Source of the DNA: Thermodesulfobacteriota bacterium
Lineage (GTDB): Bacteria > Desulfobacterota_D > UBA1144 > Nemesobacterales > UBA2774
Reading direction: 5' to 3'
Length of the DNA: 64,000 nt
Assembly (NCBI GenBank): GCA_965216785.1
Contig: OZ244197.1
Span: 3,040,001 to 3,104,000 of the forward strand
The translations under genes and the position numbers were made by a program. The notes under the pieces were generated by a model. It ran no database searches, was not told the origin of the DNA, and saw only the letters and a program-made list of their open reading frames with translations. Positions within the stretch are counted from its first letter, which is position 1. The number at the start of each line of letters is the position of its first letter. Below are positions 39,514 to 62,523 of the stretch, piece after piece.

Positions 39514-39543
39514 TTGACCCGCATCCAAGAACTGCTGTATACT
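39514..39543 (+). promoter_or_regulatory. Candidate promoter of the polysaccharide export operon
   Basis: TTGACC, 18 bp, TATACT. Confidence 0.5.
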
Positions 39544-39586: not shown

Positions 39587-40360
39587 ATGTTTAAAATAAG
39601 CTTTAGGTTAATATTGTCGTTTTTCGTAATTAGTACTATGTACTTATCCGTAGTGTCTTCTTATGCGCAACAACAAGATGCATTGGGCGAAATCCATGCG
39701 AAAGGACAGGAAGTTGTCATACAGTTAAGCGACGGAAGTGAGATAACTCTTGAAAACGGCGAAGAATATCCACTTTATCCTGGCACTATAATAATTACCA
39801 AGGAAGATAGCCAGGCCGTGCTTAAAGTTGAGGGCGGGACTTATGTAATAGAACAAAACTCAACATTCATTGCAAATTTGCTTAGCTTAAAGAGCACGAG
39901 TCTTAGCATTGTGGGAACAAACCCTGGAGAAGTATGCTATTGTTTTCAACCAAACGCTCCATTCTTGGTAGACACTCTCATTACCAAAACCACTCCACAT
40001 CAAGGTCAAGTACAACAAGCCAATTACAAACTGTTCGTTCAGGGAAGAACAGATTTAACAGAAGGCAATGCGGCGGCCTATCAGCTTGAAAACAAAGTAG
40101 ACTTTACCACTCCAACATCAACATTTGTTATTGAAGAGGGTGAAGAGAAATACTATCCGAAAACCGAAAGAGAAGATGACGAAGAGGATGTCTTCGAATC
40201 GCGCGACGGATGCTGCGTTCCGGGTGCGGCGGTTATACTAACGACCAGCCCCACCGAATATATCTTGCCGATCATTTTGGGAACAGCGGTAATTACCGGG
40301 ACTATTATAGGTGTAACCGATGGCGATGGTGACGGCACATCCAGTAACGTAACACCTTAA
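39587..40360 (+). CDS. Exported hypothetical protein (FecR-like beta domain) with C-terminal hydrophobic segment
   Basis: SD AGGAGG before ATG 39587; signal peptide ending SYA; C-terminal YILPIILGTAVITGTIIGV then DGDGDGTSSNVTP. Confidence 0.65.
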   Translation: MFKISFRLILSFFVISTMYLSVVSSYAQQQDALGEIHAKGQEVVIQLSDGSEITLENGEEYPLYPGTIIITKEDSQAVLKVEGGTYVIEQNSTFIANLLSLKSTSLSIVGTNPGEVCYCFQPNAPFLVDTLITKTTPHQGQVQQANYKLFVQGRTDLTEGNAAAYQLENKVDFTTPTSTFVIEEGEEKYYPKTEREDDEEDVFESRDGCCVPGAAVILTTSPTEYILPIILGTAVITGTIIGVTDGDGDGTSSNVTP

Positions 40361-40462
40361 CAGCGGGTTAATTTCTGAGAACTAGGCAAAAGGATTAATC
40401 CAAACTTAACGGGTCAACGTAATAGTATTTAGAACAAAGTGAGTTGCAAAAGGATAGCCGTA

Positions 40463-41455
40463 ATGAAATGGCATAAAAGTACAATAATCTTAATACTTTC
40501 AATCTTAATACTCACGGCCTGTGGGTCAAAGTCCAATTCGGGAGTGCAGACTCTACCAAAACCTCAGGCGAGTAAACAGATAAGTAAGGAATCACAAAAA
40601 CTAAACAGACAGATTATAGAAGAGACATTCTCTGACCATTCTACAGTAGATTATCAGATAGGCCCGGGCGACTTGCTGGACGTTAAAGTAATGCAGGCAC
40701 CGGAACTGGATTCTCAAGCCAGGGTAAATTCTCAAAACTCGGTTTCACTCCCACTTTTGGGAAACGTTGAAGTGGCGGGTCTTACCGCTGTGGGTGCGCA
40801 GCAGAAAATATCTGATTTATTGTCCCAGAAGTATATGCATGATCCTCATGTTGTTGTATCGATAGCGGAATACAAAAGTAAAAGAGTAGCGGTAATCGGA
40901 AGTGTGTTAAAACCTGGAACATATGAGCTGCTTGGAAAAGGCTCATTATTAGACGCTCTCGCTCAGGCGGGCGGGCTTGCCCCGGACGCGAGCGAAATCG
41001 CATATGTAACCAGAAAGGACGAAGCGGGAAACGAAAAGTCCGTTGAGATAGACCTCGATCTTCTTTTGGATAAAGGTGAGAGCAACTTAAATATCCCCAT
41101 TCAAATGGGAGACGTGGTCTATATACCTGAAGCGGGTGTAGTATATGTTGACGGCGCGGTCGAAAACCCCGGGTCTTTCCCTCTTCAAGAAGATATGACA
41201 GTCAGTCAGGCTGTAACGGCAGCCGGGGGATTTAACGATGTAGCGGAGGACTCAAACATTAAGCTGGTTCGAAACGTAAACGGCCAAATACAGGTTACCC
41301 CGATAGACCTCGAGCTAGTACACGAAGGAACAGAGGCGGATATTGAACTGCAGGACCAAGACGTAGTTATAGTTGGTAAAAGCGGCATCAAAAGCTTCTT
41401 GGACGCTATAAAGTTCGGGCTATTCTTCCCGCCCTTTAGCGTAGGAGTACAGTAG
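40463..41455 (+). CDS. wza: Polysaccharide export lipoprotein (Wza/OPX; Poly_export + SLBB domains)
   Basis: Lipobox LTAC; YQIGPGDLL, SLPLLGNVEVAGLT; two SLBB repeats. Confidence 0.88.
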   Translation: MKWHKSTIILILSILILTACGSKSNSGVQTLPKPQASKQISKESQKLNRQIIEETFSDHSTVDYQIGPGDLLDVKVMQAPELDSQARVNSQNSVSLPLLGNVEVAGLTAVGAQQKISDLLSQKYMHDPHVVVSIAEYKSKRVAVIGSVLKPGTYELLGKGSLLDALAQAGGLAPDASEIAYVTRKDEAGNEKSVEIDLDLLLDKGESNLNIPIQMGDVVYIPEAGVVYVDGAVENPGSFPLQEDMTVSQAVTAAGGFNDVAEDSNIKLVRNVNGQIQVTPIDLELVHEGTEADIELQDQDVVIVGKSGIKSFLDAIKFGLFFPPFSVGVQ

Positions 41456-41480
41456 GCATTAATATTTCAGGCTATTAACT

Positions 41481-43868
41481 ATGGATAACAGACACAACAG
41501 CGACGACGGCAGAAAAGGCGGACAGTTAGTCCCGGCACGCGAAGACAGAGCGCTCAGAGATTACGAACAGACACAGGAGATATTACGGGCGTACCCTGTT
41601 GAAGAGGATGATATCAGCATTCTTAGATATCTAGACGTAGTGCTCCGGCGCAAAAAGATTATAATAGCTTTTTTCGCTATAGTCGTCATCACAGCCCTTA
41701 TTGGGACATTTCTTTCAGACCCCCTTTATAAAGCGACTGCCAAACTTGAAATTTCACTAGATAATCAACGTATCGTCAACTTTGATCAGGTCGTCGAAAT
41801 TGAAGGTAAGACTAAGGAGTTCTACGAAACCCAATATTTACTATTAAAAAGTAAGTCTCTTGCTAAAGAAGTTGTGAACGATCTTAACTTATCGGAGCAT
41901 CCCGAGTTTTCGGGCTCAAATAAAGAGCCGGGACCCATATCACAAATTACGAGCGGGGTGAAGAACTCCATATCGGGCTTAATAGGCGGTATAAAGGGGC
42001 TTGTAGTTAAATCCCCTGAAGGCGCCAAGTCTATAGACCCGAAACTCTCTCAATTGAGAAAGCAAGATGGTATGTCCAGCAATTTTGTAAGCAGAATAAC
42101 GGTAGAGCCGATTGGAAAATCCAGGCTTGTGAATATAAGCTTTGAAGCTCACGACAGACAGCTCGCGGCAGACGCCGTAAACGGACTAGCTGACGGCTTC
42201 ATCGACTGGCTCCTTGACAGAAAAGTAGACGCGACCAAAAAAGGGAGGGACTTTCTTAAGAAGCAGCTAACCCAAGCTCAAGTTAATCTGGAAAGCTCTG
42301 AAGAGGAACTAAACAAATTCGCCAAGAAAAATGATATCGTTTCTCTTGATGAGAATATGAACATTATTTACCACACATTCACAACCTTAAACGACGCTTT
42401 GGCAGAAGCGCAAAAGGTCAGACTCGAGAAAGAATCGCTCTACAACCATGTTAAAACCGGAAACATCGAATCACTGCCGGTCATAATAAACGATGATTAT
42501 ATTCAGGATCTTAAATCGCAGCACGCTACTATAAAATCGGAATACAGCAGGATGAGCGCTACATTTAAGCCCGAATATCCGGCGCTTAAGGAGTTAGGCG
42601 CAAAAGTAGCTTCTCTTGAAGCTAAAATAAGCGAGGCTGAGAATAATGTTGCGGCCTCAATTGAGTCCGATTATAAAGCGGCACTCCAAAAGGAACAGAC
42701 ACTCCAGGCAAAGTATTCCGAGCAAAAAGACCTTGCTCTGGATCTGAATGAAAGGTCCGTACAGTATAATATTTTAAAGAGAGATGTTGATTCCAATAAG
42801 TCTATATATGATTCACTGCTCCAGAGATTAAAAGAAACAGAAGTGGCATCGGCAATTACAGCAAGCCATATTCAGGTCGTAGACTACGCCTCTGTACCGC
42901 TTGCTCCCTTTAAGCCCAATCTAAAGCTCAACTTGCTATTTGCGGGTTTCATAGGCATCTTCGGCGGCGTGTGCTTTGCTTTCTTCCTTGAATACCTAGA
43001 TAACACTGTAAGAACACCAGAAGAGGTAAGAGACAAATTAAGACTCCCTCTCATCGGCGGCATCTATGAGCTAGAGAAAACAGAAAAAGAGATGCTCCCG
43101 GTTGAGAAATCCTTCTTACTCGATCCGCGCTCACACATAGCCGAGGCTTTCCGTACCATAAGAACCTCTATAATGTTATCTACACCCGGGAACCCTCCGC
43201 AGACGATACTTGTTACCAGCTGTTTCCCCTCTGAGGGGAAAACAACCGTATCCATAAACCTGGCTTCGTCGTTTGCTCAAGCCGGAAGCAAAGTGCTTTT
43301 ATTAGAGGCAGACCTGCGACGCCCAAGAATCGGTAGCATACTAGAGTCAAACGGCAACGGTCTTAGCAGTTATTTAACCGGCAATGCTAGCTTGGGTGAA
43401 GTAATAAAAGAATCGGACTTACCAAACCTTTCGATACTTCCTGTGGGTGCTTTGCCTGTAAACCCTTCAGAGCTACTGGGCTCTGAGCAAATGAGAGACT
43501 TAATCGATAAACTAAGGGACGAGTTCGAGTATATTATCGTTGACGGACCGCCCTCACTTGGGTTTGTCGACTCTCACCTTTTATCTAACATTGTCGACGG
43601 AGTGGCTGTCGTAATCAGGGCGGGAAGCACGCCCCGTAAATCGATAAGGGAGTTGATCGATAAACTCTACAGTATCAGGGCAAACTTTCTTGGAGTTATC
43701 ATCAACGGAATAGAGCTTAATCAAAGCGGGTACTACTACAAATCATACAGCTACTACTACGGCGCTAACGAAGAAGATTCAAAAGAAAAAGATAACTATC
43801 TCCCGGAGCGTGTTGCAGAAGAGAATGACAATAGTGATTTCCAGTCCCCTAAAGACTCAACGTCTTGA
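41481..43868 (+). CDS. wzc: Polysaccharide co-polymerase / tyrosine autokinase (Wzc/GumC)
   Basis: Two TMs flanking a coiled coil; EAFRTIRT, PSEGKTT, EADLRRP, VDGPP; C-terminal YYYKSYSYYY. Confidence 0.92.
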   Translation: MDNRHNSDDGRKGGQLVPAREDRALRDYEQTQEILRAYPVEEDDISILRYLDVVLRRKKIIIAFFAIVVITALIGTFLSDPLYKATAKLEISLDNQRIVNFDQVVEIEGKTKEFYETQYLLLKSKSLAKEVVNDLNLSEHPEFSGSNKEPGPISQITSGVKNSISGLIGGIKGLVVKSPEGAKSIDPKLSQLRKQDGMSSNFVSRITVEPIGKSRLVNISFEAHDRQLAADAVNGLADGFIDWLLDRKVDATKKGRDFLKKQLTQAQVNLESSEEELNKFAKKNDIVSLDENMNIIYHTFTTLNDALAEAQKVRLEKESLYNHVKTGNIESLPVIINDDYIQDLKSQHATIKSEYSRMSATFKPEYPALKELGAKVASLEAKISEAENNVAASIESDYKAALQKEQTLQAKYSEQKDLALDLNERSVQYNILKRDVDSNKSIYDSLLQRLKETEVASAITASHIQVVDYASVPLAPFKPNLKLNLLFAGFIGIFGGVCFAFFLEYLDNTVRTPEEVRDKLRLPLIGGIYELEKTEKEMLPVEKSFLLDPRSHIAEAFRTIRTSIMLSTPGNPPQTILVTSCFPSEGKTTVSINLASSFAQAGSKVLLLEADLRRPRIGSILESNGNGLSSYLTGNASLGEVIKESDLPNLSILPVGALPVNPSELLGSEQMRDLIDKLRDEFEYIIVDGPPSLGFVDSHLLSNIVDGVAVVIRAGSTPRKSIRELIDKLYSIRANFLGVIINGIELNQSGYYYKSYSYYYGANEEDSKEKDNYLPERVAEENDNSDFQSPKDSTS

Positions 43869-43895
43869 TTTTCTTCCGTACGCCAAACGACAGTT

Positions 43896-45122
43896 ATGAA
43901 TCTTTCACTGCGTCCTCGCTATAAGCAAATACTAGCTGTCATAGCGATCTTAATAATTGTCGCTTTTTTAATCCATAGCTCATTTAAAACCTGGCTTGCT
44001 TACTCGTACGCTGAAGGCCCTCAGCCCGAGGGGCTCAGACTAGCATACGCAAATGATCCCGGTAATCCCGATTACTCTTTTCTAATCGCATATTACCTAA
44101 TGGAATACGATGACCAGTCTTCTTACGAATCAGCATTAGAAGAATACAAAAAAGCCCTCACCCTCTCCCCTTTCAATAATAATTACTGGTTTTATCTGGC
44201 CGAGCTTCTGCATTACGGAGGCCAACGCGAACAAGCTCTATACGCTCTTAATGAAGCTACAACTCTCTCACCGGGTACAGTGTCGCTCAGGTGGAGAGCC
44301 GGCATGCTGGCCTCTAAGCTTGGAGATCGAGAATCGGTGCTCGACAATCTTAGCGCTGTTATTGAATACGATCCCCACAGACGCAGAAAAGCCTTTGCGC
44401 TGCTCTGGCAAGCTGTAGGTAATGAGGATAAAATTTTTAACAGTATTTCAGATAACGCATTATCACCCTATTTTTATTACCTCAGAACAACCGGCAGAAT
44501 AGATCAGGCGGGCAAAGTCTTTGAAAGACTGAGAGAGCTAAATTACGATACAAGCATAGTAGCCTATAAATATGTAGCCGATCTGATTCGAAGCGGCGAC
44601 ATAGACTCGGCAAAACAAATCTGGATAGATACATATGGCGATTGGGATGGAGTATGGAACGGCAGTTTTGATGAAGATATGAAAAACGACGGATTTGATT
44701 GGAGACTGGGGGTAGTAGATGGCGTTAAGATGAAAAAAGATCTAGACTCTCACAGCGGAGATTACTCCCTCATGGTCACTTTTGATAGCAAGCACGACAT
44801 AGATTTCAGCCATCTATCTCAAGTAATTCCCGTTCAGGATGGAAGTAACTACACAGTAAATCTCTACGTTAAAACTGACGACATATTAACTTCAGAGGAC
44901 TTGCAATGGCAGGTCTATTGTTTATATACTGAGGAGCTTAACGCCCGCTCAAGTTCGATAATCGGTACGCATGACTGGAAGCCCTATACCATAACATTCA
45001 CTGCGCCAAAGGGCTGCGGGGCAATAAATCTTCGCCTAATATTGGATAAAAGCGATAAGGTCAATAAGCTCATATCGGGAACCCTGTGGGTAGATGATGT
45101 AAGCATAACAAAAAATTACTGA
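43896..45122 (+). CDS. Membrane-anchored TPR protein with C-terminal carbohydrate-binding (CBM4/9-like) domain
   Basis: N-terminal TM; TPR-like ALTLSP/ATTLSP; WNGSFD...GTHDW...GTLWVDDVSI. Confidence 0.7.
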   Translation: MNLSLRPRYKQILAVIAILIIVAFLIHSSFKTWLAYSYAEGPQPEGLRLAYANDPGNPDYSFLIAYYLMEYDDQSSYESALEEYKKALTLSPFNNNYWFYLAELLHYGGQREQALYALNEATTLSPGTVSLRWRAGMLASKLGDRESVLDNLSAVIEYDPHRRRKAFALLWQAVGNEDKIFNSISDNALSPYFYYLRTTGRIDQAGKVFERLRELNYDTSIVAYKYVADLIRSGDIDSAKQIWIDTYGDWDGVWNGSFDEDMKNDGFDWRLGVVDGVKMKKDLDSHSGDYSLMVTFDSKHDIDFSHLSQVIPVQDGSNYTVNLYVKTDDILTSEDLQWQVYCLYTEELNARSSSIIGTHDWKPYTITFTAPKGCGAINLRLILDKSDKVNKLISGTLWVDDVSITKNY

Positions 45123-45130
45123 GAGCGTTA

Positions 45131-46528
45131 TTGAACACTACTATGAGAAGAGCCCCGGAATTGATCCTCGATATCTTAATCAGCGCCGGCATAGCGATAA
45201 TACTGCTGAGTCCTTTTCCCTATGGGACCGTGGAGACGTGGTCGGTCTCCCTATTTGAAATAGTGTCGTTTCTAACTTTAGGGTTATGGTGTCTGAGAGA
45301 AGTTAGCAGCAAGAGAATAAGACTTGCAGCTTCCCCCCTATATCTTCCTATGGGTCTACTTTTTATTTTGATCGTTATTCAGCTAATACCTATGCCTTTG
45401 TCGATTTTGAAATATATTTCCCCTCATACACAAGCCATGCTCAATCAAGCTACGGAGGGGCTTAATTACATTTTCGGCGAGAGTACAATCAGCTCTTTCA
45501 CTATCAGCATAAATCCCTATGCGACTAAAGAGAAATTGTTGCTCTACTTCTCTTACGCAGCATTTTTTATAGTTACCTCAAACTACGTTGCAAGCAGAAA
45601 TCAGCTCAAAAAATATTTTTGGCTTATACTGGCGGTTGGAGTTATTCAGTCTCTAATAGGTATAGCTCAATACATAAGCAGCGCAAGCGCGCTAGCGGCG
45701 TCCGGCACATATATTAATCCAAATCACTTTGGAGGATTATTGATTTTAATTATCCCCCTTTCTCTGGGCTACATATTATATATGAGTCAAAGAACAAGAG
45801 GCGGAGATAATCTTTTTACTATTATTAGACAATCCAAATTTTCAAACCAGCTACTGCTCTTCTTCGCTACCATTTTAATGGGAACGGGGCTGATAATGTC
45901 TGAGTCAAGAGGCGCTCTTATATCTGTTTTAGCTGCGATTGCTATATTCTATATACTTCTTTCCTGGAAAAAGAAAACCCGATCTGGAACACTCTTCATA
46001 GGATTATTTCTCACAATTATTGCTATATACTCATTTTGGATAGGCATCGATCCTGTTATTGAAAAATTTGCAGAAACCTCGGAAACACTACCAAAGCGAA
46101 CATTTATTTGGAAAGACACACTGACGATAATTAAGGACTTTCCTCTGTTTGGGACGGGGCTCGGGACATACAGTCTCAGTTTTTCTTTATATAAAAATGT
46201 CGCGTACTGGCCTACCATTATACAGCACGCTCACAATGATTACCTGGAACTCTTGTCTGAAACGGGAATAATCGGATTTTTGCTAGTAATGTGGGGAATA
46301 GTAATATTCTATAAGCAGGCTATATCGAAATTTCTAAGAAATAATCCTCACAATGACCCTCTTAGGTATTACTTAGTGCTTGGAGCTATAAGCGGCTCAC
46401 TTGGAATGATGGTGCATGTGATTACGGATTTTAATTTTCAAATTCCCGCAAACGCTTACTATTTTACGTTTCTTCTTGGTATATCAACTAGTATATCTAA
46501 TGTGTCCAGGCAAAAGAAGAATGTTTAA
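45131..46528 (+). CDS. O-antigen ligase/polymerase-like (Wzy_C) membrane protein
   Basis: GTYINPNHF, SESRG, FGTGLGTY, HAHNDYLELLSETG, DFNFQIPAN. Confidence 0.88.
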   Translation: MNTTMRRAPELILDILISAGIAIILLSPFPYGTVETWSVSLFEIVSFLTLGLWCLREVSSKRIRLAASPLYLPMGLLFILIVIQLIPMPLSILKYISPHTQAMLNQATEGLNYIFGESTISSFTISINPYATKEKLLLYFSYAAFFIVTSNYVASRNQLKKYFWLILAVGVIQSLIGIAQYISSASALAASGTYINPNHFGGLLILIIPLSLGYILYMSQRTRGGDNLFTIIRQSKFSNQLLLFFATILMGTGLIMSESRGALISVLAAIAIFYILLSWKKKTRSGTLFIGLFLTIIAIYSFWIGIDPVIEKFAETSETLPKRTFIWKDTLTIIKDFPLFGTGLGTYSLSFSLYKNVAYWPTIIQHAHNDYLELLSETGIIGFLLVMWGIVIFYKQAISKFLRNNPHNDPLRYYLVLGAISGSLGMMVHVITDFNFQIPANAYYFTFLLGISTSISNVSRQKKNV

Positions 46529-46603: not shown

Positions 46604-48520
46604 TTATTTTAGTGATGCTTCAGTCGCATCACCGGACTCTTCAATATCCTCACTTTGCGAATTGCTATAAGTAGGCACCAAGTTTTTTATACTTGATATA
46701 ATGATTTCATTCGAGTCGCCTCTTTCTGAAATGTTGATGAGCTCATCTACAACATTAAGATAATCCACTTGCTGAGGGTTTTTATCGTGGGCTATAAAAA
46801 TCTTTTTTCTTATTGTAACGGTTGTATCTTCCTCTGCCGTAAGAATTTCCTCATACAGTTTTTCTCCGGGCCTAAGACCTGTATAAACTATCGGTATGTC
46901 CTTATCCGGCACAAATCCGAAGGAGTGGATAATGTTTTTAGCTAAGTCCAGAATATTGACCTGCTTACCCATGTCTAATACAAAAACTTCTCCCCCCCTG
47001 CCCAGCGCGCCTGCCTGAAGCACTAAGAATACAGCTTCATGAATACTCATAAAATACCTCATCATATTTGGATGAGTAACCGTAACGGGCCCACCTCTTC
47101 TTACCTGATCCTTGAAAATAGGTATAACGCTCCCTCTGCTGTCGAGAACATTGCCGAAACGTACGGATACGAATTCGGTTTTATCGCTGCGTGTCTCCTT
47201 GAGCATATTTTCAGAGACTCTTTTCGTCGCTCCCATCACACTTGTGGGGTTTACAGCTTTGTCGGTGGATATGAAAATAAATTTCTCGACATTATTCTTC
47301 AGCGCAAGCTGAGAGGTTACCTTAGTACCTAACACATTATTAAGCACAGCTTCCCTGGCATTTTTCTCCAATAACGGCACATGCTTATACGCTGCGGCGT
47401 GAAAAACTACATTCGGACTATATTCCTTAAATATCTTTCCCATCCCGACTTCATCTTTAACGTCCGCCACGATCGACACGTTAGGCACATGCCTGAGCTT
47501 TTCGCCCATCTCCTTGTTTATATAAAATAGCTCTGTATCCCCAACATCTACAAGTACAAGGAGCTCGGGTTCAAATCCCGATATTTGCCTGCAGAGCTCA
47601 GACCCTATTGAACCTCCGGCGCCAGTGACCAACACGCGCTTACCTTTAATATATGAAAAAATACTATCCACTTCCTGGCTTACGGATTTTCTGCCCAAAA
47701 AGTCCTCTGCCGAAACCTCTTTAAAATCACCTACAGTGACTTTCCCCGCGATAACTTCAGGCAGTCCAGGCATTATCCTAATGTGATCAATCCCTGACTC
47801 CCGACAGTACTCAAGTATATCGCTGATCTGTGATGACGTTGCGGTAGGTATGGAAAGGATAATCCCTTCAATATTATATTTCGCCACTACTTTAGGTATG
47901 TCTTTGCTGCTTCCGACAACCTGAAGTCCACGAATATAATTTCCGAGCTTTCCCGGATCGTCGTCTACAAATGCCACAGGGACATAAGAATAGCTCAGAT
48001 TAGTCGGCCATTTCAGCTCATTTAGCAAATGCACACCGGCATTTCCCGCGCCGACAATAAGCACTCTCTTCCCTTCCTGCTTTTTATAATCCGATTGATA
48101 GAAGATCCTGTAACCGAATCGAAGCCCGAAGCTAAACAGAAACGTAAGTAAAAAATCAATTAACGCAACTGATCTCGGATATCCCTCCATTAATGGTAAA
48201 TCCCGGAATATAACGCTCAGCAAAGTTAATAAGCCGGCGGATAATAGAGATGCCTTCAATACTCCCTGAAGCTCGTAAAGCGAGAAGTATCTATAGGAAA
48301 TTTTATAAAGCTTAAATTGCCAAAATACTGCAAGCTTTATCGGTGCATACAAAGCGAGGAGAAATAATATCTGAGGAATAAAACCGCTCCGTATTTCCCC
48401 TAATCTTATATAATATGAAAAGAACAGTATCACGACAAAAAGCACTAAGTCCGTGGTCAATGTGATCGGGAGTTTATAGTGTCTATTTTCATCTACTAAT
48501 CGGATTATTATATTTCTCAA
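46604..48520 (-). CDS. UDP-GlcNAc 4,6-dehydratase (PglF/WbpM/CapD family)
   Basis: 4 N-terminal TMs; TGAGGSIGSE, HAAAYKHVP, STDKAVNP, MGATK, RFGNVLDSRGSV. Confidence 0.92.
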   Translation of the reverse strand: MRNIIIRLVDENRHYKLPITLTTDLVLFVVILFFSYYIRLGEIRSGFIPQILFLLALYAPIKLAVFWQFKLYKISYRYFSLYELQGVLKASLLSAGLLTLLSVIFRDLPLMEGYPRSVALIDFLLTFLFSFGLRFGYRIFYQSDYKKQEGKRVLIVGAGNAGVHLLNELKWPTNLSYSYVPVAFVDDDPGKLGNYIRGLQVVGSSKDIPKVVAKYNIEGIILSIPTATSSQISDILEYCRESGIDHIRIMPGLPEVIAGKVTVGDFKEVSAEDFLGRKSVSQEVDSIFSYIKGKRVLVTGAGGSIGSELCRQISGFEPELLVLVDVGDTELFYINKEMGEKLRHVPNVSIVADVKDEVGMGKIFKEYSPNVVFHAAAYKHVPLLEKNAREAVLNNVLGTKVTSQLALKNNVEKFIFISTDKAVNPTSVMGATKRVSENMLKETRSDKTEFVSVRFGNVLDSRGSVIPIFKDQVRRGGPVTVTHPNMMRYFMSIHEAVFLVLQAGALGRGGEVFVLDMGKQVNILDLAKNIIHSFGFVPDKDIPIVYTGLRPGEKLYEEILTAEEDTTVTIRKKIFIAHDKNPQQVDYLNVVDELINISERGDSNEIIISSIKNLVPTYSNSQSEDIEESGDATEASLK

Positions 48521-49158
48521 ATTTGAATCACTCCAAAAATTGTTCTGATGATTATTCTTATATCCGTCTGAAAGCTCATATCGTTGATATACTTTCTATA
48601 AAGTAAGATCTTCTCCGGCAGAATCTCATCTATGTAGGCTTCCTCCACATCTTCATACCCTGCGAGAATCTCTTCTTCGTTCTTAAACTCGAGCGCCGCA
48701 TAATCGGTAAGTCCGGGACTGATCTGTAATATATAAGAGTAATCGTTCTCAAATAAATCCACGTATTTTTTAGATTCAGGCCTGGGACCAACGACACTCA
48801 TCTCCCCCTTCAGCACATTATACAGCTGAGGCAGCTCATCCAGTTTATATTTCCTCAGATACTTACCCACCGCCGTTATCCTGTTATCGTCTCGAGATGT
48901 AATGGAGAGACCTTTAGCTTCAGAGCTATTTGTCATTGTCCTGAACTTGTAGAGTATAAAAGGACTTGCGTTCTTACCCATTCTTGTTTGTTTAAATAGA
49001 CCCGGCCCCTCCCCGGATAGTTTTACAAGTATCCAGATAATTACCAACACGGGTGAAAGCACTATAAGAAATGTTAAAGAAAACACAATATCAAATAGCC
49101 GCTTTCCAAATCCGATATATAAACTTTTAGATTTATACTCTATGCTTTTCACAAACAT
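48517..49158 (-). CDS. Monotopic phosphoglycosyl transferase (PglC-like)
   Basis: KRLFDI, YKFRTM, KLDELPQL, GEMSVVGPRP. Confidence 0.92.
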   Translation of the reverse strand: MFVKSIEYKSKSLYIGFGKRLFDIVFSLTFLIVLSPVLVIIWILVKLSGEGPGLFKQTRMGKNASPFILYKFRTMTNSSEAKGLSITSRDDNRITAVGKYLRKYKLDELPQLYNVLKGEMSVVGPRPESKKYVDLFENDYSYILQISPGLTDYAALEFKNEEEILAGYEDVEEAYIDEILPEKILLYRKYINDMSFQTDIRIIIRTIFGVIQI

Positions 49159-50284
49159 CCTTCACCGTTTGAATTACATATTCGATTTCTGCCTCGCTCA
49201 TACCCGGATAAATTGGGAGTGATATTATACGCTCATAGAACCATTCTGCCTCGGGGAAATTCTCCACTCCATAAGAAAACGCATTTTGATAAAATGGATG
49301 CCTATGAAGAGGAATAAAATGAACACTCGTACCTATACCATTTTCTTTTAACAATTCTATAAACTCTGCTCTATCAATATTCAATTCACCTGGGTCAATC
49401 TTTAATGCGTAAAGATGGTATGAAGAAACTCTCTCACTGTCCATGTAAGGAGTCATAAGCTGTTTAACATCCGAGAACGCCTCGGTATATTTTTGGGCTA
49501 TATGCTTTCTCATTTCCCACATTTTATCCAACTTTCTTAACTGCGAGAGCCCGAGAGAGGCTTGCAGGTCTGTCATATTGTATTTGTAGCCCGTCTCCAG
49601 CACCTCGTAGTACCAGGATCCCCCGTTTGAGTACCTTTTCCAAGCGTCTTTAGATATACCGTGCAGTCTTAGAATTCGCATTCTTTCAGCCCACTTCTCA
49701 TTCTCTGTCGTTACCATCCCCCCCTCCCCTGCGGCAAGAGGCTTGGTGGCGTAAAAGCTAAAGCACGTCATATCACCGATTGATCCAACCGGCTTATCTT
49801 TATAGTAAGCCGGCAGTGAATGTGCGGCATCTTCAATGACAAACAATTTATTGGCCTCCGCTATATCCAAGATTTGATCCATATCACATGGCAGCCCCCC
49901 GTAGTGAACCGGAATGATTGCCCGGGTTCTTGAAGTTATCGCCTTTTCTATAGCAGATATGTCAATATTCCCTGTGGTTCTGTCTATATCTACAAGTACG
50001 GGTACCGCATTACAATAACAAACAACCTCAGCTGTAGCCGTAAATGTCATTGTAGGAACTATGACTTCCTCGCCCTCCTTTAAATCTATCGCTTTTAGAG
50101 CAAGGTGAAGTGCGGACGTCCCTGAATTTACTGCAACTGCATGCTCTGAGCCTACATAGCCTGAGAATTCACGCTCAAACTCAAATGTCTTAGGCCCCAT
50201 GGTAAGCCATCCCGACCGTACGGTATCTAGCAATCCGGAGACTTCATCCTCAGTTATATATGGTTTATGAAATGGTATATCCAT
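49133..50284 (-). CDS. DegT/DnrJ/EryC1/StrS sugar aminotransferase (PglE-like)
   Basis: SGTSALH, EDAAH, FSFYATK, GEGG motifs. Confidence 0.93.
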   Translation of the reverse strand: MDIPFHKPYITEDEVSGLLDTVRSGWLTMGPKTFEFEREFSGYVGSEHAVAVNSGTSALHLALKAIDLKEGEEVIVPTMTFTATAEVVCYCNAVPVLVDIDRTTGNIDISAIEKAITSRTRAIIPVHYGGLPCDMDQILDIAEANKLFVIEDAAHSLPAYYKDKPVGSIGDMTCFSFYATKPLAAGEGGMVTTENEKWAERMRILRLHGISKDAWKRYSNGGSWYYEVLETGYKYNMTDLQASLGLSQLRKLDKMWEMRKHIAQKYTEAFSDVKQLMTPYMDSERVSSYHLYALKIDPGELNIDRAEFIELLKENGIGTSVHFIPLHRHPFYQNAFSYGVENFPEAEWFYERIISLPIYPGMSEAEIEYVIQTVKDVCEKHRV

Positions 50285-50906: not shown

Positions 50907-51815
50907 ATGCAAAGAACACAAACACAAACTAAAGACAGCGAACCGGATACAAAAAATTCCAAAGTAACCGACGACGAAGCTAATCTTATAGATTACAAAA
51001 TTCCCACTTCAGTTCGGGAATCCCGTAAAAATGCATCATTAAACCTAAAGGAAATATGGGCATACCACGAACTTCTATATTTTCTTGTATGGCGGGATAT
51101 TAAAGTACGTTATAAACAAACCGCTTTAGGTGTAACTTGGGCCGTACTTCAACCATTTATGACCATGGTTGTATTTACGATATTCTTCGGCAAACTGGCA
51201 AAAATTTCAACAGACGGCTTTCCGGGACCTATATTTTACTTTTCCGCACTTCTTCCCTGGCAGCTTTTCGCGTATGCCTTAACAAATTCGAGCAACAGCC
51301 TGGTTTCCAACAGCGACCTTATAACAAAAGTATATTTCCCTCGTTTAATAATCCCGCTTTCCTCAACAATTGCAGGGGTTGTAGATTTTTGCATCGCATT
51401 TTTAGTGCTCATCGCAATGATGCTCTATTACGGCATCACACCGAGCTCAACAATAGTACTGCTCCCTCTATTCATAGTATTTGCCATAGCCACCGCGCTT
51501 GCCGTAAGTTTATGGCTTTCGGCATTGAATGTGAAATATAGAGACGTGCGCTTCACGGTGCCGTTTCTAACACAATTCTGGCTTTTCATCACACCGATTG
51601 CATACCCGAGCAGCCTTGTGCCTGAAAAATGGCGCATTTTATACGGACTTAACCCCATGGCCGGTGTAGTGGAGGGATTCAGATGGGCTATACTGGGAAA
51701 ATCGAGCGGTGTGGGTCCTTTAATCATAGTATCCGGGATAATTGTGATAGTCATGCTAATTGGTGGCTTAATATATTTCAGACACACTGAAAGAACTTTT
51801 GCGGACATAGTGTAA
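50907..51815 (+). CDS. wzm: Polysaccharide ABC transporter permease
   Basis: RDIKVRYKQT..G..W, KVYFPR, LNPM, FADIV C-terminus. Confidence 0.92.
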   Translation: MQRTQTQTKDSEPDTKNSKVTDDEANLIDYKIPTSVRESRKNASLNLKEIWAYHELLYFLVWRDIKVRYKQTALGVTWAVLQPFMTMVVFTIFFGKLAKISTDGFPGPIFYFSALLPWQLFAYALTNSSNSLVSNSDLITKVYFPRLIIPLSSTIAGVVDFCIAFLVLIAMMLYYGITPSSTIVLLPLFIVFAIATALAVSLWLSALNVKYRDVRFTVPFLTQFWLFITPIAYPSSLVPEKWRILYGLNPMAGVVEGFRWAILGKSSGVGPLIIVSGIIVIVMLIGGLIYFRHTERTFADIV

Positions 51816-51817
51816 AA

Positions 51818-53089
51818 ATGAACAAGACGGCTATTTCTATTTCAAATATTGGTAAAGAATACAAAATCGGCGAAAAAGTCGAATACGGAAGTTTAAGGGA
51901 AGATTTAACCAATTTTATTAGTAGTGGGGTAAAAAAGTTAGTCTCAAAACAAGACGGCTCCAACGGAGCGGAAAAGATTACAGCTCAAGATTACTTCTGG
52001 TCTCTGAAAGATATTTCTTTTGATATCGGCAGAGGAGAGATAATGGGAATTATCGGCCGAAACGGCGCCGGTAAAAGCACACTCCTTAAAATAATAGCCG
52101 GAATTACAGAGCCTACAGAGGGAAGAATAAATATCTACGGCCGCATAGCTTCTTTACTGGAAGTAGGTACCGGTTTTCATCAGGAGCTCACCGGTCGAGA
52201 GAACATATACCTAAACGGCGCGATTCTGGGCATGAGAAGAACCGAGATAGATAGTAAGTTTGATGAGATCGTCGCGTTCTCGGAAGTCGAAAAATTCATC
52301 GATACCCCGGTGAAGTTTTATTCAACAGGCATGAGAGTCAGACTAGGGTTTTCGGTTGCGGCACATTTAGAGCCTGAGATTCTCCTGATTGACGAAGTGC
52401 TTGCCGTTGGAGACGCCGCATTCCAAAAGAAATGTCTTGGCAAGCTTAATAATGTTGCTACCTCAGAGGGCAGAACGGTATTATTCGTTAGTCACGATAT
52501 GACTGCAATTTTATCTCTTTGTAATCGAACAATACTTTTAGAGAACGGTAAAGTCGTTGCACAAGGTAAGACAGATCAAGTTGTTCAACAATATCTAGGC
52601 GCAGTCGTCACAAACTCCACAGCTCCCTTAGAATTAAGAGAGGATCGCACAGGTGATGGAAGTGTATTAATTACTTCGCTCTCTATCGAAAATTCCAATG
52701 CAAATAACCCAATTAAACCCGGATGCAAGCTGAAAATTAAAATAAGCTATAAGAGTAAAGATCTGGTTAGTCATCCTCAATTTCTATTTAAAATTAGGGA
52801 CTTCAGAACCAATGCAGTTATTCTTCGTCTCGACAGCGATATGATGAGCGGGTTACCTGACGTTCTACCACCTGAGGGTGCAATAAGTTGTATCACTGAC
52901 AATATATATATTACTCCTGGAAGATGTATAGTCGATGTAGAAATAAGAAAAGGGACGCTTAGCTGTGACCTTATACAACATGCTGGACACTTCGATATCG
53001 CAACAGACGATGTATACGGAACAGGAAAAATACCAGAACGAGATCAAGCATCTTATCTGGTTAAGTACAAGTTTTTACTGGAAGAATAA
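51818..53089 (+). CDS. wzt: Polysaccharide ABC transporter ATPase with C-terminal Wzt_C domain
   Basis: GRNGAGKST, YSTGM, DEVLAVGD, VSHD; long C-terminal extension. Confidence 0.93.
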   Translation: MNKTAISISNIGKEYKIGEKVEYGSLREDLTNFISSGVKKLVSKQDGSNGAEKITAQDYFWSLKDISFDIGRGEIMGIIGRNGAGKSTLLKIIAGITEPTEGRINIYGRIASLLEVGTGFHQELTGRENIYLNGAILGMRRTEIDSKFDEIVAFSEVEKFIDTPVKFYSTGMRVRLGFSVAAHLEPEILLIDEVLAVGDAAFQKKCLGKLNNVATSEGRTVLFVSHDMTAILSLCNRTILLENGKVVAQGKTDQVVQQYLGAVVTNSTAPLELREDRTGDGSVLITSLSIENSNANNPIKPGCKLKIKISYKSKDLVSHPQFLFKIRDFRTNAVILRLDSDMMSGLPDVLPPEGAISCITDNIYITPGRCIVDVEIRKGTLSCDLIQHAGHFDIATDDVYGTGKIPERDQASYLVKYKFLLEE

Positions 53090-53151
53090 CCGAATATATG
53101 AAATGAATAATTACACAATAGAAAGCAAATAAATAATCGGGTGCAAGTACC

Positions 53152-53904
53152 GTGTCAATACTTAACAATAATTTAACAAAATTAGTTTGGTGTTTATTGC
53201 CTAGTTATCTCCGTAGCTATATCGGTACAAAGTTGAAATATAAGGGTTATATACCCATTGGCTTGATCAATTTTGGAGACTTTAGAAGACTAACTCCGAT
53301 AGGAAGCAATTACGGACATGATAGAGGCAAACCGATTGACAGATTTTATATAGAGAATTTCCTGGACTCCAATTCTTCCGACATTAAGGGTAGTGTGCTG
53401 GAGATTGAAGATAACGCATATACACTTAGATACGGAAAAGATAAAGTAACAAATAGTGATATCCTTAATCTATCTAAAGAAATAAACCCCGCGACAACGA
53501 TCGTGGCAGATCTTTCATCAGCCCCTCATATACCTTCAAATTCATTTGACTGCATTATATTTACGCAAACTCTGCAATATATATACAATGTAAACGGAGC
53601 CATTAAGACTTTACATCGAGTACTGAAGCCCGGCGGAGTCCTGCTTGCTACCATACCGGCTATTAGTCAACTGGATGCACACTGGTCTGAGCAATATTTT
53701 TGGAATTTTAGCTCTGCTTCCACCGGACTATTATTTAGAGAGCATTTTCCTGATGATAAAGTAGAAATTCACGGATGCGGCAATATATTAACTGCAATAA
53801 GCTTTCTCCATGGATTGGCATTAGACGAATTAACTGAAAAAGAGTTGAATTACCAAGATGATATATATGAGTTAATCATAACAATTAAGGCTACTAAAAA
53901 TTAA
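53152..53904 (+). CDS. Class I SAM-dependent methyltransferase (glycan-locus type)
   Basis: DRGKPIDRFYIE, VLEIED, FDCIIFTQTL, LKPGGVLL. Confidence 0.82.
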   Translation: MSILNNNLTKLVWCLLPSYLRSYIGTKLKYKGYIPIGLINFGDFRRLTPIGSNYGHDRGKPIDRFYIENFLDSNSSDIKGSVLEIEDNAYTLRYGKDKVTNSDILNLSKEINPATTIVADLSSAPHIPSNSFDCIIFTQTLQYIYNVNGAIKTLHRVLKPGGVLLATIPAISQLDAHWSEQYFWNFSSASTGLLFREHFPDDKVEIHGCGNILTAISFLHGLALDELTEKELNYQDDIYELIITIKATKN

Positions 53905-53921
53905 TAAAACTGAGCGATAAT

Positions 53922-54746
53922 ATGTCTATTTCAATCCCTATACTTATGTACCATCAAGTTAGCACTGTTACTCATCCCAATTTTCGGGAGTATACGGTAA
54001 CAACTGAAATGTTCACCTCTCAGATGAGGATTCTGAAACGTCTGGGATTTAACCCTATTACGTTCAATCAACTATACTCGTACAAAAAGGGAACCGGCAC
54101 TCTACCTAGGAAACCTATAATTATTACCTTTGACGACGTGTTGGTTGACGCTGTAGAATGTGCAGTCCCAATACTTGAAGAATTTGGATTTAAAGCGGTA
54201 TTCTATGTGCCAACCGATTTTGTTGGAAGAAAAAGCAGCTGGATGATACCTGACGTAGATGTCGAATTCCCTGTAGTAAGTTGGAAAGAAATTCGAGACC
54301 TTGCTTCAAAGGGTTTTGAAATTGGCTCTCATTCAATGACCCATCCCCATCTGGATAAAATATCATCTGAAAACTGCTACAGAGAACTTGAAGGATCTCG
54401 CAAGAAACTCGAACAGGAACTAGGAATTGAAATTAGGCATATGGCTTATCCATTTGGCGAATTCGATGAGAGTGTAAGAGAGTTAGCAAATAATGCTGGT
54501 TATTATACAGCTTGCGCTGGTGAGTCCTACATAGCCAACTCAAACACTCACTTGCTCAGCCTGCCGAGGCAAAATGTCGGTATGAGCGATAATATGGCTG
54601 AGTTTGTATTGAAGATACATTTTGGATATACGATTACTGATGTAAGGAAGATGATAACAAGCAGAACAGAAAACTTAAAAAGGCATATTCCTAAACCTGT
54701 CAGGCAAGTACTAAAAAAACTATTAAGATATCCAAATTCAGCTTAA
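53922..54746 (+). CDS. Polysaccharide deacetylase (CE4)
   Basis: ILMYH, ITFDD, HSMTH, AYPFG. Confidence 0.9.
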   Translation: MSISIPILMYHQVSTVTHPNFREYTVTTEMFTSQMRILKRLGFNPITFNQLYSYKKGTGTLPRKPIIITFDDVLVDAVECAVPILEEFGFKAVFYVPTDFVGRKSSWMIPDVDVEFPVVSWKEIRDLASKGFEIGSHSMTHPHLDKISSENCYRELEGSRKKLEQELGIEIRHMAYPFGEFDESVRELANNAGYYTACAGESYIANSNTHLLSLPRQNVGMSDNMAEFVLKIHFGYTITDVRKMITSRTENLKRHIPKPVRQVLKKLLRYPNSA

Positions 54747-54752
54747 TACATC

Positions 54753-55748
54753 ATGATTAAAGTCAGCATAATAATACCGACATACCAACGGTGTAGCTCA
54801 TTGAAGCGTGCTCTAAACGCTCTTAACTCACAATCATTCCCCTTTGATGAGTTTGAAGTAATAGTGTCAATTGATGGATCTCAGGACGGTTCCAAAGAGT
54901 TTGTCAAACAATTCAAGTCTAAATATAATCTGCAATACATATGGGAGCCGAATGAAGGCAGAGCATTTGCATGCAACAGAGGCATACGGAAAGCTAAAGG
55001 GGAAGTTCTAATAATAATAGACGATGACATGGAACCTGGATTTGAATTTGTTAGTGCGCACTTCAAAGCCCATCAATCAAACGCAATGCTCGGCATAATG
55101 GGGGCAGCTCCCATACCCCTTGATAATAATTCTTCGATTGCAGCACACTATATAGCTTCGGAATTTAATTCAAGACAGAATAAGATTTCATCACCAGACT
55201 ACAAATTCCAGATCAGAGACTTTTACGGCGGCAACCTGTCAATTCGTCTGGAGAATATTTTAAACATAGGAGGGTTTGATGAATCTTTCAAAGGATACGC
55301 CCATGAAGACATAGAGCTCGCTTACCGGTTAATTAAATCGGGCGTTACAATCATATATGATAAAGACGCATACTGCACTCAACACTATGAAGATAATTTT
55401 CGAAACCTTCTCAAAAAAACAATTTCTGCAGGTAAAAGTGCGGTCTTACTTTATAGAATGTACCCTAATTCTTTTGAAGAAAATGAGCTCGCAACTTATA
55501 ATTCAGACGGCTGGAAGTGGCGTTCGCTTCGTTTGTTCTTAATTTGGATCAGCATTATTATTCCCTTTACAACCGATATTATTGCATCATTTGTAATACA
55601 TTTCGGGAAATCATATTCAGGAATAAAAGCAAAACTATGCTATTTAGCTATGGATTATTCCCTTTGGCTTGGAGTCTGGCTAGCGCTGAGAAATGATACC
55701 GATAGAAGACAGATCATCTCCAAAATAAAATCTTTCAAAAGAAAATGA
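54753..55748 (+). CDS. Glycosyltransferase family 2
   Basis: VSIIIPTY, DGSQD, IDDD, GFDE..HEDIEL. Confidence 0.92.
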   Translation: MIKVSIIIPTYQRCSSLKRALNALNSQSFPFDEFEVIVSIDGSQDGSKEFVKQFKSKYNLQYIWEPNEGRAFACNRGIRKAKGEVLIIIDDDMEPGFEFVSAHFKAHQSNAMLGIMGAAPIPLDNNSSIAAHYIASEFNSRQNKISSPDYKFQIRDFYGGNLSIRLENILNIGGFDESFKGYAHEDIELAYRLIKSGVTIIYDKDAYCTQHYEDNFRNLLKKTISAGKSAVLLYRMYPNSFEENELATYNSDGWKWRSLRLFLIWISIIIPFTTDIIASFVIHFGKSYSGIKAKLCYLAMDYSLWLGVWLALRNDTDRRQIISKIKSFKRK

Positions 55749-55816
55749 AAAAAAATTAACATACAAAAATCATGACTCGCATTAATATTACTAATATATC
55801 AACAATGGTAGCTTAA

Positions 55817-56587
55817 ATGAACCGTAAAATCCCAATCCTAACATATCACCAAGTGGCGCCAAACCCTGAGGCGTGCTATCCGCTGCAGTCAGTAGAACCT
55901 AAGGCTTTTGCGCTCCAAATGAAAATGCTTAGTAGGCTAGGCTACAACACTATCGATCTTGATCAATTGTATGAATATAGAATGGGGAGGGGCAACCTAC
56001 CGGAAAAGCCGATTGTAATAACATTTGATGACGGTTATCAAGACTCAATAGATTATTCAATCCCTATCCTAAAGGATTACGGTTTCACTGCGATTTACTA
56101 TATACCTACCGATTATATAGGAAAAAATAGCTCATGGTTAATGCCTGAGCTAGGATTTGAATTGCCAATTGTCGATTGGGAAAGAATTAAGTGGCTTGAC
56201 TCAAACGGTTATCATATCGGAGACCATTCTGCATCTCACCCCCACCTTGACCGGATCACAAGAGATGAATGTATTAATGAGCTTGAAATCTCAAAGAACA
56301 TACTTGAAGAAAAACTCGGACATGAAGTTAAACATTTAGCGTACCCTTACGGATCATACAACAAATCAGTAATGTTAGCTGCCTCAGAGATTGGTTATAA
56401 CACCGCATGTACAATCGAAGAAGGCTTATGTAAACCCAAGTACGACCGACTTTCTCTACCCCGTATCAATATAGGGCAAAGAGATTCGATAGTAGATTTT
56501 GTTTCGAAAATACATACAGGCTTTAGCCCACAAAGCGGTGCAAAGATACTTTTCAATAAAACATTAAATATTTTCAGCATCCTATGA
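55817..56587 (+). CDS. Polysaccharide deacetylase (CE4)
   Basis: ILTYH, ITFDDG, HSASH, AYPYG. Confidence 0.9.
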   Translation: MNRKIPILTYHQVAPNPEACYPLQSVEPKAFALQMKMLSRLGYNTIDLDQLYEYRMGRGNLPEKPIVITFDDGYQDSIDYSIPILKDYGFTAIYYIPTDYIGKNSSWLMPELGFELPIVDWERIKWLDSNGYHIGDHSASHPHLDRITRDECINELEISKNILEEKLGHEVKHLAYPYGSYNKSVMLAASEIGYNTACTIEEGLCKPKYDRLSLPRINIGQRDSIVDFVSKIHTGFSPQSGAKILFNKTLNIFSIL

Positions 56588-56667
56588 ACGTAAAGCATTA
56601 TAATTCAATTAAGACCCATCCCCATGTTTTCGTACAAAATTATAATTTCATATGAGACACAATTACA

Positions 56668-57777
56668 ATGAAGCACACAGTCGTACATTACATTGACAGT
56701 AAAGAGTTCGGCGGAGCCGAGCAAATGGTTTTTACTATATTAAAAGGAATGGCCCGCAATAAATGGAAAATCGTATTGATTTACCATCCGCATGTCGGCT
56801 TGTCTCGCTTTATAGAAAAAGTAAACGAGCTTGATGTGAGCACAGTTTGCCTACCAGAAATAAAAAACTGGAGAGATATCTCCGGATTTATAAGATTTAT
56901 CAGGAAGTTAAGGCATATCAAACCCTCCGTATTCCACGCTCACTTACCATGGCATCTACGCTGCACATTCGGCATTCTCTGCGCATTTTGTGCCCGTGTT
57001 CCTGCAATCATAGCTACTCTTCATGCTTATCAAGAAAATCTAGGACGTAAAGAACTCTTCATCCAGAAAATTTTATCAATTTTAGTAGACCGCTATATTG
57101 CTGTATCGAAAAGTATTGCAAAACAATTCAAAAAAGTAACACTTTTTGAGGCCAATGTCTTAGTAATTCACAATGGGATTTGTATTGATAGATTTAGTAA
57201 GACAAACATGGACGATCCACTCAGCTCCATGAAAGCTCAAAAAGAGTTCACAACCATTCTAATGATTGCCCGCATGGATAAACACAAAGGGTACGAAGAT
57301 TTGATATCTGCTGCGGCTCTCATACCTAATGCTTACTTTATGCTTGTAGGAGACGGACCTGAGAGAAAGAAACTGGAACAAAGTGTAAAGAAATTAAATA
57401 TGCAAGATCGTGTTTTATTTCTAGGATACAGAGAAGATATACCCTCACTTCTAAGTAGTTGCGATCTATTTGTACTCCCTTCACTATTTGAAGGTCTGCC
57501 GCTAACCATACTCGAAGCGATGGCTGCCGAAAAACCGGTGATTGCTTCAAATATTAGTGGGATAGATGAAATAATTACGGACGACGAGACAGGATTTTTA
57601 GTACCCACCAAAGATCCTGAAGCCCTATCATCAGCTATAAAGATTTGTATTTCAAACCCCGATAAAGCCCAAAAAGTGGCCCAAGCGGGGAATATTCGGG
57701 TTAAAAAAGAATTCTCCGACAAGAAAATGCTCAAAGCTATATCCACATTATACGAGGAACAGTTAAATTCTGTGTAA
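56668..57777 (+). CDS. Glycosyltransferase family 4
   Basis: GGAE, HNGI, LPSLFEGLPLTILEAM. Confidence 0.92.
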   Translation: MKHTVVHYIDSKEFGGAEQMVFTILKGMARNKWKIVLIYHPHVGLSRFIEKVNELDVSTVCLPEIKNWRDISGFIRFIRKLRHIKPSVFHAHLPWHLRCTFGILCAFCARVPAIIATLHAYQENLGRKELFIQKILSILVDRYIAVSKSIAKQFKKVTLFEANVLVIHNGICIDRFSKTNMDDPLSSMKAQKEFTTILMIARMDKHKGYEDLISAAALIPNAYFMLVGDGPERKKLEQSVKKLNMQDRVLFLGYREDIPSLLSSCDLFVLPSLFEGLPLTILEAMAAEKPVIASNISGIDEIITDDETGFLVPTKDPEALSSAIKICISNPDKAQKVAQAGNIRVKKEFSDKKMLKAISTLYEEQLNSV

Positions 57778-57790
57778 AAGATAAAAACAG

Positions 57791-58564: not shown

Positions 58565-58587
58565 TAGAATAAGCAAAAACAATTCAA

Positions 58588-60270: not shown

Positions 60271-60273
60271 AGA

Positions 60274-61506: not shown

Positions 61507-61548
61507 CTTATATCAATCTATAACGGGGAGATTTATACTTATAGAGTT

Positions 61549-62475: not shown

Positions 62476-62523
62476 CGTTAAGCTCTCTAACAACTAATGA
62501 AAAATCTATAAAATGAGAGAAAT

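Follow-up and report, generated by a model that had tools for sequence, protein, structure and literature searches.

In this study, we describe a conserved addition to the Wza-Wzc polysaccharide export system, found in a stretch of 64,000 nucleotides (positions 3,040,001 to 3,104,000 of contig OZ244197.1, assembly GCA_965216785.1; hereafter the window) from a Thermodesulfobacteriota bacterium. Five co-oriented genes at 39587..46528 encode an exported protein (gene 1, here X), Wza, Wzc, a TPR-CBM protein (gene 4, here T) and a Wzy_C ligase, and we refer to X, T and the ligase around wza-wzc as the cassette. This three-gene add-on to Wza-Wzc export is real, conserved and apparently undescribed, and it is fairly likely to act as a protein anchor for the surface glycan. 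X and T very probably constitute a dedicated module of the export system. The more specific proposal, partly anticipated by an initial annotation of this DNA, that X is the carrier, i.e., the dedicated acceptor of the ligase that anchors the exported glycan with T as adaptor, is put forward tentatively and may well prove wrong.

The annotated arrangement of the five genes was confirmed, and domain matches (Pfam and NCBIfam profiles) bore out the Wza, Wzc, TPR-CBM and Wzy_C assignments, the CBM_4_9 match of gene 4 (E 1.7e-4; TPR also matched) lying under the curated cut-off. The cassette and the parts of X are as follows, with pLDDT denoting the predicted local distance difference test score:

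39587..40360 (+): gene 1 (X), exported protein of 257 aa, proposed glycan acceptor and anchor
39587..39667 (+): predicted Sec signal peptide, residues 1-27, ending in SYA; judged by eye, model helix at residues 4-20
39686..40156 (+): FecR/PupR-type periplasmic beta domain, residues 34-190, with CYC at 117-119; assigned from homologues and an AlphaFold model
40211..40216 (+): CC pair, residues 209-210, putative disulfide partner of CYC, in one subfamily only
40262..40318 (+): Gly/Ala/Thr-rich, weakly hydrophobic helix candidate, residues 226-244, pLDDT <50 in the monomer model
40319..40357 (+): polar linker and end motif, with Ser253 (40343-40345) as proposed glycosylation or recognition site
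40463..41455 (+): gene 2, Wza/OPX lipoprotein with Poly_export and two SLBB domains (Pfam) and a short C-terminal amphipathic segment
41481..43868 (+): gene 3, Wzc co-polymerase/tyrosine kinase with Wzz, GNVR and AAA_31 domains (Pfam)
43896..45122 (+): gene 4 (T), membrane-anchored TPR and CBM-like protein, strict gene partner of X and its predicted binder
45143..46528 (+; start at 45131 or 45143): gene 5, Wzy_C ligase/oligosaccharyltransferase-like protein of 461 aa with a HAHNDY motif (Wzy_C E 1.4e-26)

The partnership of X and T emerged from profile searches for X, T and wza in 120 genomes of the phylum Dadabacteria, all metagenome-assembled genomes (MAGs). From about 62 distinct wza loci, 55 were fetched (left out were both loci of this genome, G016, single loci in G023 and G030, the latter partial, and two in G026), and 45 could be scored, as contig ends cut the other 10. 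X lay directly upstream and T downstream of wza in 37 loci, neither was present in 8, and no locus was discordant. Both states occur in the present genome, with X and T at the window locus and neither at a second wza-wzc. Moreover, a cassette-type Wzy_C gene, placed downstream or divergently upstream, was detected in 28 of the 37 stretches with X and T and in none of the 8 without. Homologues of X are hence tied tightly to polysaccharide export genes and to T, a linkage which the initial annotation had expected; since the counted loci are kin, the count shows co-inheritance. One subfamily has the cassette next to Wzm/Wzt clusters, the other next to clusters interpreted as Wzx-type. A scan of genome contigs returned only 11 close relatives, and viral contigs contained no TPR-CBM relative.

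Some loci depart from this layout. The second wza-wzc cluster of the genome (G000:C1:1764599-1786250) includes a flippase as well as a Wzy_C protein without the His motif described below. In L064 and L068, two X copies flank a pair of PAS histidine kinase and response regulator genes, and L106 (G008) is a reduced, possibly decaying locus with the ligase, a short X and a short T, and no wza/wzc between them.

Gene 1 starts at ATG 39587 just downstream of an AGGAGG ribosome site, and its layout is as first described, with a signal-peptide-like start (Ala27 is nearly invariant in alignment A1), a beta domain, an acidic linker, the CC pair and a Gly/Thr-rich hydrophobic stretch at residues 226-244. 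X itself gave no direct Pfam FecR match and no useful Pfam, NCBIfam or PDB sequence match; the FecR-like domain was borne out by the homologues P0029 and P0030, which pass the Pfam FecR cut-off, and by its fold. In the AlphaFold model, residues 34-190 mostly reach a pLDDT >90 and resemble PupR (6ovm; Z 12.3, rmsd 2.9, 123 residues aligned) and BDI_1681 (4m0h; Z 12.2), followed by an adhesin anchoring domain (5ix9; Z 5.7, residues 30-123). A profile search of 1.84 billion representatives yielded 14 proteins, and one distant FecR-passing homologue clusters with a Thermodesulfovibrionales protein. Look-alike clusters from Acidobacteriota and Myxococcota in an atlas (0.95) are a lead only.

The C-terminal end of gene 1, DGDGDGTSSNVTP, belongs to a part of the protein (residues 213-257) that the AlphaFold monomer did not place confidently. 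The tail had been portrayed as acidic, Pro-terminated and preceded by a Cys pair, which is true of gene 1, but none of the three traits is invariant in homologues. Of 41 homologues, only 18 end in Pro and 35 are net acidic over their final 16 residues, so neither trait is defining. The CC pair and the internal CYC are both present in 26 of 44 sequences and both missing in 18; CC thus occurs only with CYC, which points to internal disulfides. Cys-lipidated tails of the MYXO-CTERM type have an invariant Cys just before the helix, and a lipidation role for CC was rejected, as the pair is absent in 18/44 and always accompanied by CYC.

In fact, the tail is conserved in other features, namely the Gly/Ala-rich helix candidate, a polar linker and a small-Ser-(Pro/Asn)-hydrophobic motif located 3-7 residues from the end. 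Across 44 sequences sharing 15-89% identity, the alignment column of Ser253 contains Ser 43 times and Thr in the remaining sequence, i.e., a hydroxyl residue throughout, and is among the five best-kept columns. Of the 49 X open reading frames (ORFs), 32 carry the strict end motif [AVG]S[PN][VIF] at their very end, versus 4 of 2664 genome ORFs; a loose version is found in 40/49 versus 133/2664. Among the nine X ORFs without the loose motif, six appear truncated or frameshifted, one has Thr, one carries an internal motif without helix and one is motif-less. The end motif is kept while X varies in length from 232 to 583 aa and gains NfeD-like repeats. In L109, X lacks the helix and ASPV directly follows the domain, a position that would fit an extracytoplasmic motif.

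Several X variants have an unusual domain composition. In P0016, two FecR-type domains, one Cys-free and one Cys-containing, are fused in tandem and followed by one tail, and long variants of 313-616 aa (L114:10235-11983, L117:4443-6152, L118:9993-11840, L116:3977-4915) contain extra repeats between FecR domain and tail, with Pfam NfeD matched in three of the four.

The initial annotation had also considered the tail as a new sorting signal. Like PEP-CTERM, IPTL-CTERM and GlyGly-CTERM proteins, X combines a signal peptide with a C-terminal hydrophobic helix, and PEP-CTERM loci likewise hold genes for exopolysaccharide export, TPR proteins and O-ligases (weak NCBIfam matches under cut-off). In contrast to these systems, the X tail is single copy, has no basic end and carries its motif after the helix, and no linked sortase was seen; the statement that it is neither PEP-CTERM nor GlyGly-CTERM was accordingly upheld by the missing basic end. 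Tail profiles recovered X only, both among 5585 ORFs of at least 80 aa and among 19748 ORFs of at least 35 aa of this genome, which as a positive control harbours 49 IPTL-CTERM-like tails with basic ends (+1 to +5). A tail-only database search reduced 7996 scored candidates to 35 proteins, each of them a member of the X family or a fragment of such a member; as such a search favours sequences sharing words with the query, this is weak evidence of absence. With the tail alone as query, the atlas yielded no more than a 0.79 match. Given a single-copy tail next to 49 IPTL-like tails in the same genome, a general multi-substrate sorting tag was rejected. The genome also encodes an exosortase H that passes the cut-off and is not linked to X; it lies with its associated membrane protein at G000:C1:983548-984745 (L017:1420-2617), the 49 IPTL-CTERM-like substrates being spread genome-wide.

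For the Wzy_C protein, the closest solved relative is 7tpg (E 1.2e-5), a structure of WaaL. An H-[AS]-H-[NS] motif is present in 17 of 19 cassette Wzy_C proteins and in none of the other 3; according to the accessible part of PMC9829042, TfpM depends on a conserved His for its activity. In BLAST searches, the cassette proteins mostly rank each other above non-cassette Wzy_C. A tree of 22 sequences (FastTree, midpoint root) places the three non-cassette proteins together with a support of 0.845, which does not prove the cassette ligases to be one clade.

The chain to be attached likely originates from the cluster downstream of the cassette:

46604..50284 (-): PglF-like dehydratase, initiating sugar transferase and DegT aminotransferase, likely making a lipid-linked primer
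50907..63666 (+; runs past the window end): Wzm/Wzt ABC exporter, methyltransferase, deacetylases, kinase-like protein and glycosyltransferases

A chain exported by an ABC transporter needs no polymerase, and the Wzm/Wzt system therefore favours a ligase role for Wzy_C at the window locus. The O-antigen ligase WaaL needs a cell-made lipid A-core acceptor, the genes for which were not found here. LpxC was missing in 119 of 120 phylum genomes, the single match being a 44-residue piece at a contig start, and in all 94 high-quality ones, with 4 of 14 control genomes matched. No WaaA domain was detected in 33 family genomes, and E. coli LpxB and LptD had no match in the present genome (a MAG of 92% completeness), in which LpxA and LpxD of E. 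coli found weak matches (E 6e-7 and 8e-8) and BamA a strong one. With LpxC, WaaA, LpxB and LptD not found, a lipid A-core acceptor for the ligase is unlikely. X, T and Wzy_C form a conserved add-on to the Wza-Wzc channel, which likely links the exported glycan to X and would in this way anchor the surface coat of cells that lack lipid A. As lipid A genes are absent across Dadabacteria, the phylum is also a candidate for the diderm phyla free of lipopolysaccharide (LPS); our literature search found no account of Dadabacteria as such a phylum. As to the envelope itself, the diderm genes for BamA, SurA and Lgt/Lnt-like proteins are present, and the cluster bamA-skp-like-fabZ has no lpxD, lpxA or lpxB alongside.

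A complex prediction for T and X reached a score of 0.56 compared to 0.04 for the best control, with runs agreeing in at least 42% of contacts and a partner pLDDT of at least 73. Among 157 solved pairs, 116 attained the mark for this score, as did 2 of the 215 that were mismatched; passes at 0.60 or less, however, comprise just 18 of the 157 solved pairs and both mismatched ones, and for this reason the prediction lends weak support to binding of X by T. The score does not separate the tail from the FecR domain as the binding part.

Look-alikes of the cassette also appear beyond the phylum. In two of six Nitrospirota-type metagenome contigs X is followed by wza, and the other four end too soon. 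A homologue of T led to alphaproteobacterial plasmid loci, seven of which were fetched. Three of these, from Bradyrhizobium, Mesorhizobium (NZ_AP023244.1) and Agrobacterium, feature an X look-alike beside wza, wzc, T and ligase, consisting of a signal peptide, half a beta domain and a Gly-Ala helix and ending in ASP or VSR. The three aligned weakly with the A5 and A2 profiles (hhalign probability 10-11%, E 0.003), searches of E. coli and four alphaproteobacterial plasmids with the Dadabacteria profile A5 gave no match, and a tail profile built from Dadabacteria only missed the rhizobial and Nitrospirota-type tails among 1523 ORFs. Owing to this miss and the weak homology, identity across phyla rests on architecture and gene position. 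The X look-alike on the Bradyrhizobium plasmid CP094621.1 (L080:12333-12956) is absent from the gene table of the plasmid.

How could such a cassette work? X would be secreted whole into the periplasm, as suggested by its weakly hydrophobic helix and the lack of basic residues behind it. T, anchored in the inner membrane, could bind both X and the glycan, and the Wzy_C enzyme would transfer the undecaprenyl-linked chain onto Ser253 of X, the chain being supplied by the neighbouring Wzm/Wzt pathway here and presumably by Wzx-type clusters at paralogous loci. The glycosylated end might next travel through Wza to the cell surface, with X retained in the envelope by its Gly-rich helix and by the FecR-type domain in the periplasm. 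Secretion, binding, glycosylation, threading and anchoring are all steps we infer. X as acceptor is the simplest account of an invariant Ser/Thr, a dedicated exported protein and an adjoining ligase in cells without lipid A. The complete scenario, in which a FecR-fold carrier is O-glycosylated on its C-terminal Ser, passed on by a TPR-CBM scaffold and then threaded through Wza, with the coat replacing the O-antigen layer in Dadabacteria and the same module operating in Rhizobiales and Nitrospirota, is rather unlikely to hold in all its parts.

Several observations weigh against X as the acceptor. X tracks T more tightly than the ligase, as 9 of 37 loci with X and T have no cassette-type Wzy_C in the fetched stretch (a count for the stretch, not genome-wide), and since the loci share ancestry and were chosen through matches to X, T or wza, 45 of 45 concordant loci are not 45 independent events. 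The full-length X of L118 has no end motif, and the Ser, lying 3-7 residues from the end, is not a terminal site of the TfpO/TfpM type. The His motif cannot tell a protein from a lipid acceptor. Four of the seven alphaproteobacterial loci (from sphingomonads) contain ligase-wza-wzc-T and no adjacent X. Moreover, Rhizobiales make LPS, and as they also carry the cassette, loss of lipid A is not required. Finally, a rough estimate of insertion energy speaks for the acceptor model in that X tails (median +2.1, n=19) insert less favourably than the IPTL-CTERM helices (median 0.0, n=49), though the helix of the window X, at +1.0, falls within the IPTL-CTERM range of -1.7 to +1.3. Its tail could therefore also be an inner-membrane stop-transfer segment with a cytoplasmic end.

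The best surviving alternative, although also rather unlikely, is that X is an unmodified structural or assembly subunit which binds T through the end motif as peptide-recognition site, Wzy_C being a polymerase or a ligase for a non-LPS lipid. TPR domains bind C-terminal peptides, Wzc and Wza normally act with a Wzy polymerase, X follows T strictly and the ligase is found in 28/37 loci only, and the weak complex support concerns precisely X with T. However, the Wzm/Wzt exporter at the window makes a polymerase dispensable, and the invariant position is specifically a hydroxyl residue. In addition, cassette Wzy_C proteins are ~50% identical within the family while the downstream glycosyltransferases vary; glycan-specific polymerases, by contrast, vary with the glycan.

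A private sorting or processing signal for a single substrate, at which a protease or transpeptidase would cut near the helix to anchor or release the FecR-type domain, agrees with the order of signal peptide, domain and C-terminal helix and with the retention of the motif on proteins of very different length. We regard it as improbable, as no sortase-like or protease gene was seen as conserved neighbour in the annotated loci, exosortase H lies elsewhere with its own 49 substrates, and the motif follows the helix without a basic end. Comparably doubtful is an option in which X helices oligomerise and complete the outer-membrane pore of an OPX protein without full Wza_C helix. Gene 2 has no Wza_C match, no BBP2 barrel and no GfcB/C/D match was found in the genome, and class 3 OPX proteins depend on a partner for outer-membrane passage (PMC9603273, accessible part), but the second OPX of the genome has a similar C-terminus without adjacent X, as is the case at eight other loci, and the X of L109 has no helix. 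Least likely of all, and very unlikely by itself, is X as a FecR-type envelope sensor regulating polysaccharide export. Its fold match to the anti-sigma periplasmic domains of PupR and BDI_1681 and the two-component genes near some paralogues speak for this role, but a common fold does not establish function, X has a signal-peptide-like start without a cytoplasmic anti-sigma domain, and neither an ECF sigma factor nor a TonB-dependent receptor was seen as conserved neighbour.

Precedents for X as acceptor exist in O-oligosaccharyltransferases with cognate acceptor genes alongside (PMC9829042, accessible part) and in the proposed, untested role of GfcA as O-antigen carrier (PMC8592465, accessible part). 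The former include TfpO, TfpM and PglS, which resemble the cassette by a Wzy_C enzyme of similar size (461 aa vs 440-470 for TfpO) with a His motif, encoded next to a dedicated exported protein in which a Ser/Thr close to the C-terminus is conserved (PMC9829042, accessible part). Unlike their acceptors, X is not a pilin and has a FecR fold, its Ser is internal by 3-7 residues, and the cassette is coupled to Wza-Wzc and TPR-CBM. In the E. coli group 4 capsule and related operons (gfcABCDE-etp-etk, yjbEFGH), GfcA/YjbE is likewise encoded by the first gene of a capsule export operon and shares with X the signal peptide, a Gly/Ala-rich hydrophobic C-terminal stretch and an acidic Gly/Ser/Thr tail. 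GfcA has no folded domain, however, and the gfc operon as annotated contains no Wzy_C or TPR-CBM gene. Homology of X to GfcA/YjbE was not supported, as 17 and 209 of 1000 shuffles reach the real score with the tail profile and no Pfam YjbE match was obtained. Likewise, phmmer searches of this genome with E. coli GfcB, C and D gave no match at E 1e-3.

The export channel itself corresponds to Wza-Wzc (OPX/PCP-2a) and class 3 OPX systems, with a Poly_export-SLBB lipoprotein without Wza_C match and a fused Wzc kinase. It differs by three extra conserved genes and by the pairing with a Wzm/Wzt ABC pathway at the window locus, and queries with BBP2 and GfcD only found no partner beta-barrel. Similarity to the retention modules of LapA and MpIBP is limited to weak retention_LapA matches and the 'cell surface anchoring domain' of 5ix9; with a Z below 8 and matches far under the NCBIfam cut-off, it is a lead only.

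A literature search with most subscription papers and supplements (e.g., OPX neighbourhood tables) outside its scope gave no description of the cassette, nor do the accessible parts of PMC11340318 (promonan) or PMC12419801 (lipocone) describe it. How Wza-exported capsules stay on Gram-negative cells is still unsettled (PMC12220298, accessible part), and a protein carrier has so far only been proposed for GfcA (PMC8592465, accessible part). In this context, the cassette offers a candidate acceptor, residue, adaptor and enzyme for capsule attachment. The look-alikes on plasmids of culturable Agrobacterium, Mesorhizobium and Bradyrhizobium make the idea testable, and, if true, a ligase moving long chains onto a short peptide motif would be a new tool for glycoengineering.

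Further features of the locus are of minor weight. A sigma-70-like promoter candidate precedes gene 1:

39514..39543 (+): TTGACC-18-TATACT, a 10/12 consensus match only

The promoter and terminator scan was at chance level, with 11 sigma-70-like sites in the region versus 15.4 in shuffles. Upstream of X, a 428-aa gene with a weak antitoxin-like C-terminal match (window 38123-39409) is found in most type I loci of the family and not in other subtypes. The OPX C-terminus (window 41378-41455, as well as L061, L063-L065 and L067) consists of a short amphipathic helix and a hairpin-like segment in place of a Wza_C helix, and might form an outer-membrane barrel of its own on oligomerisation.

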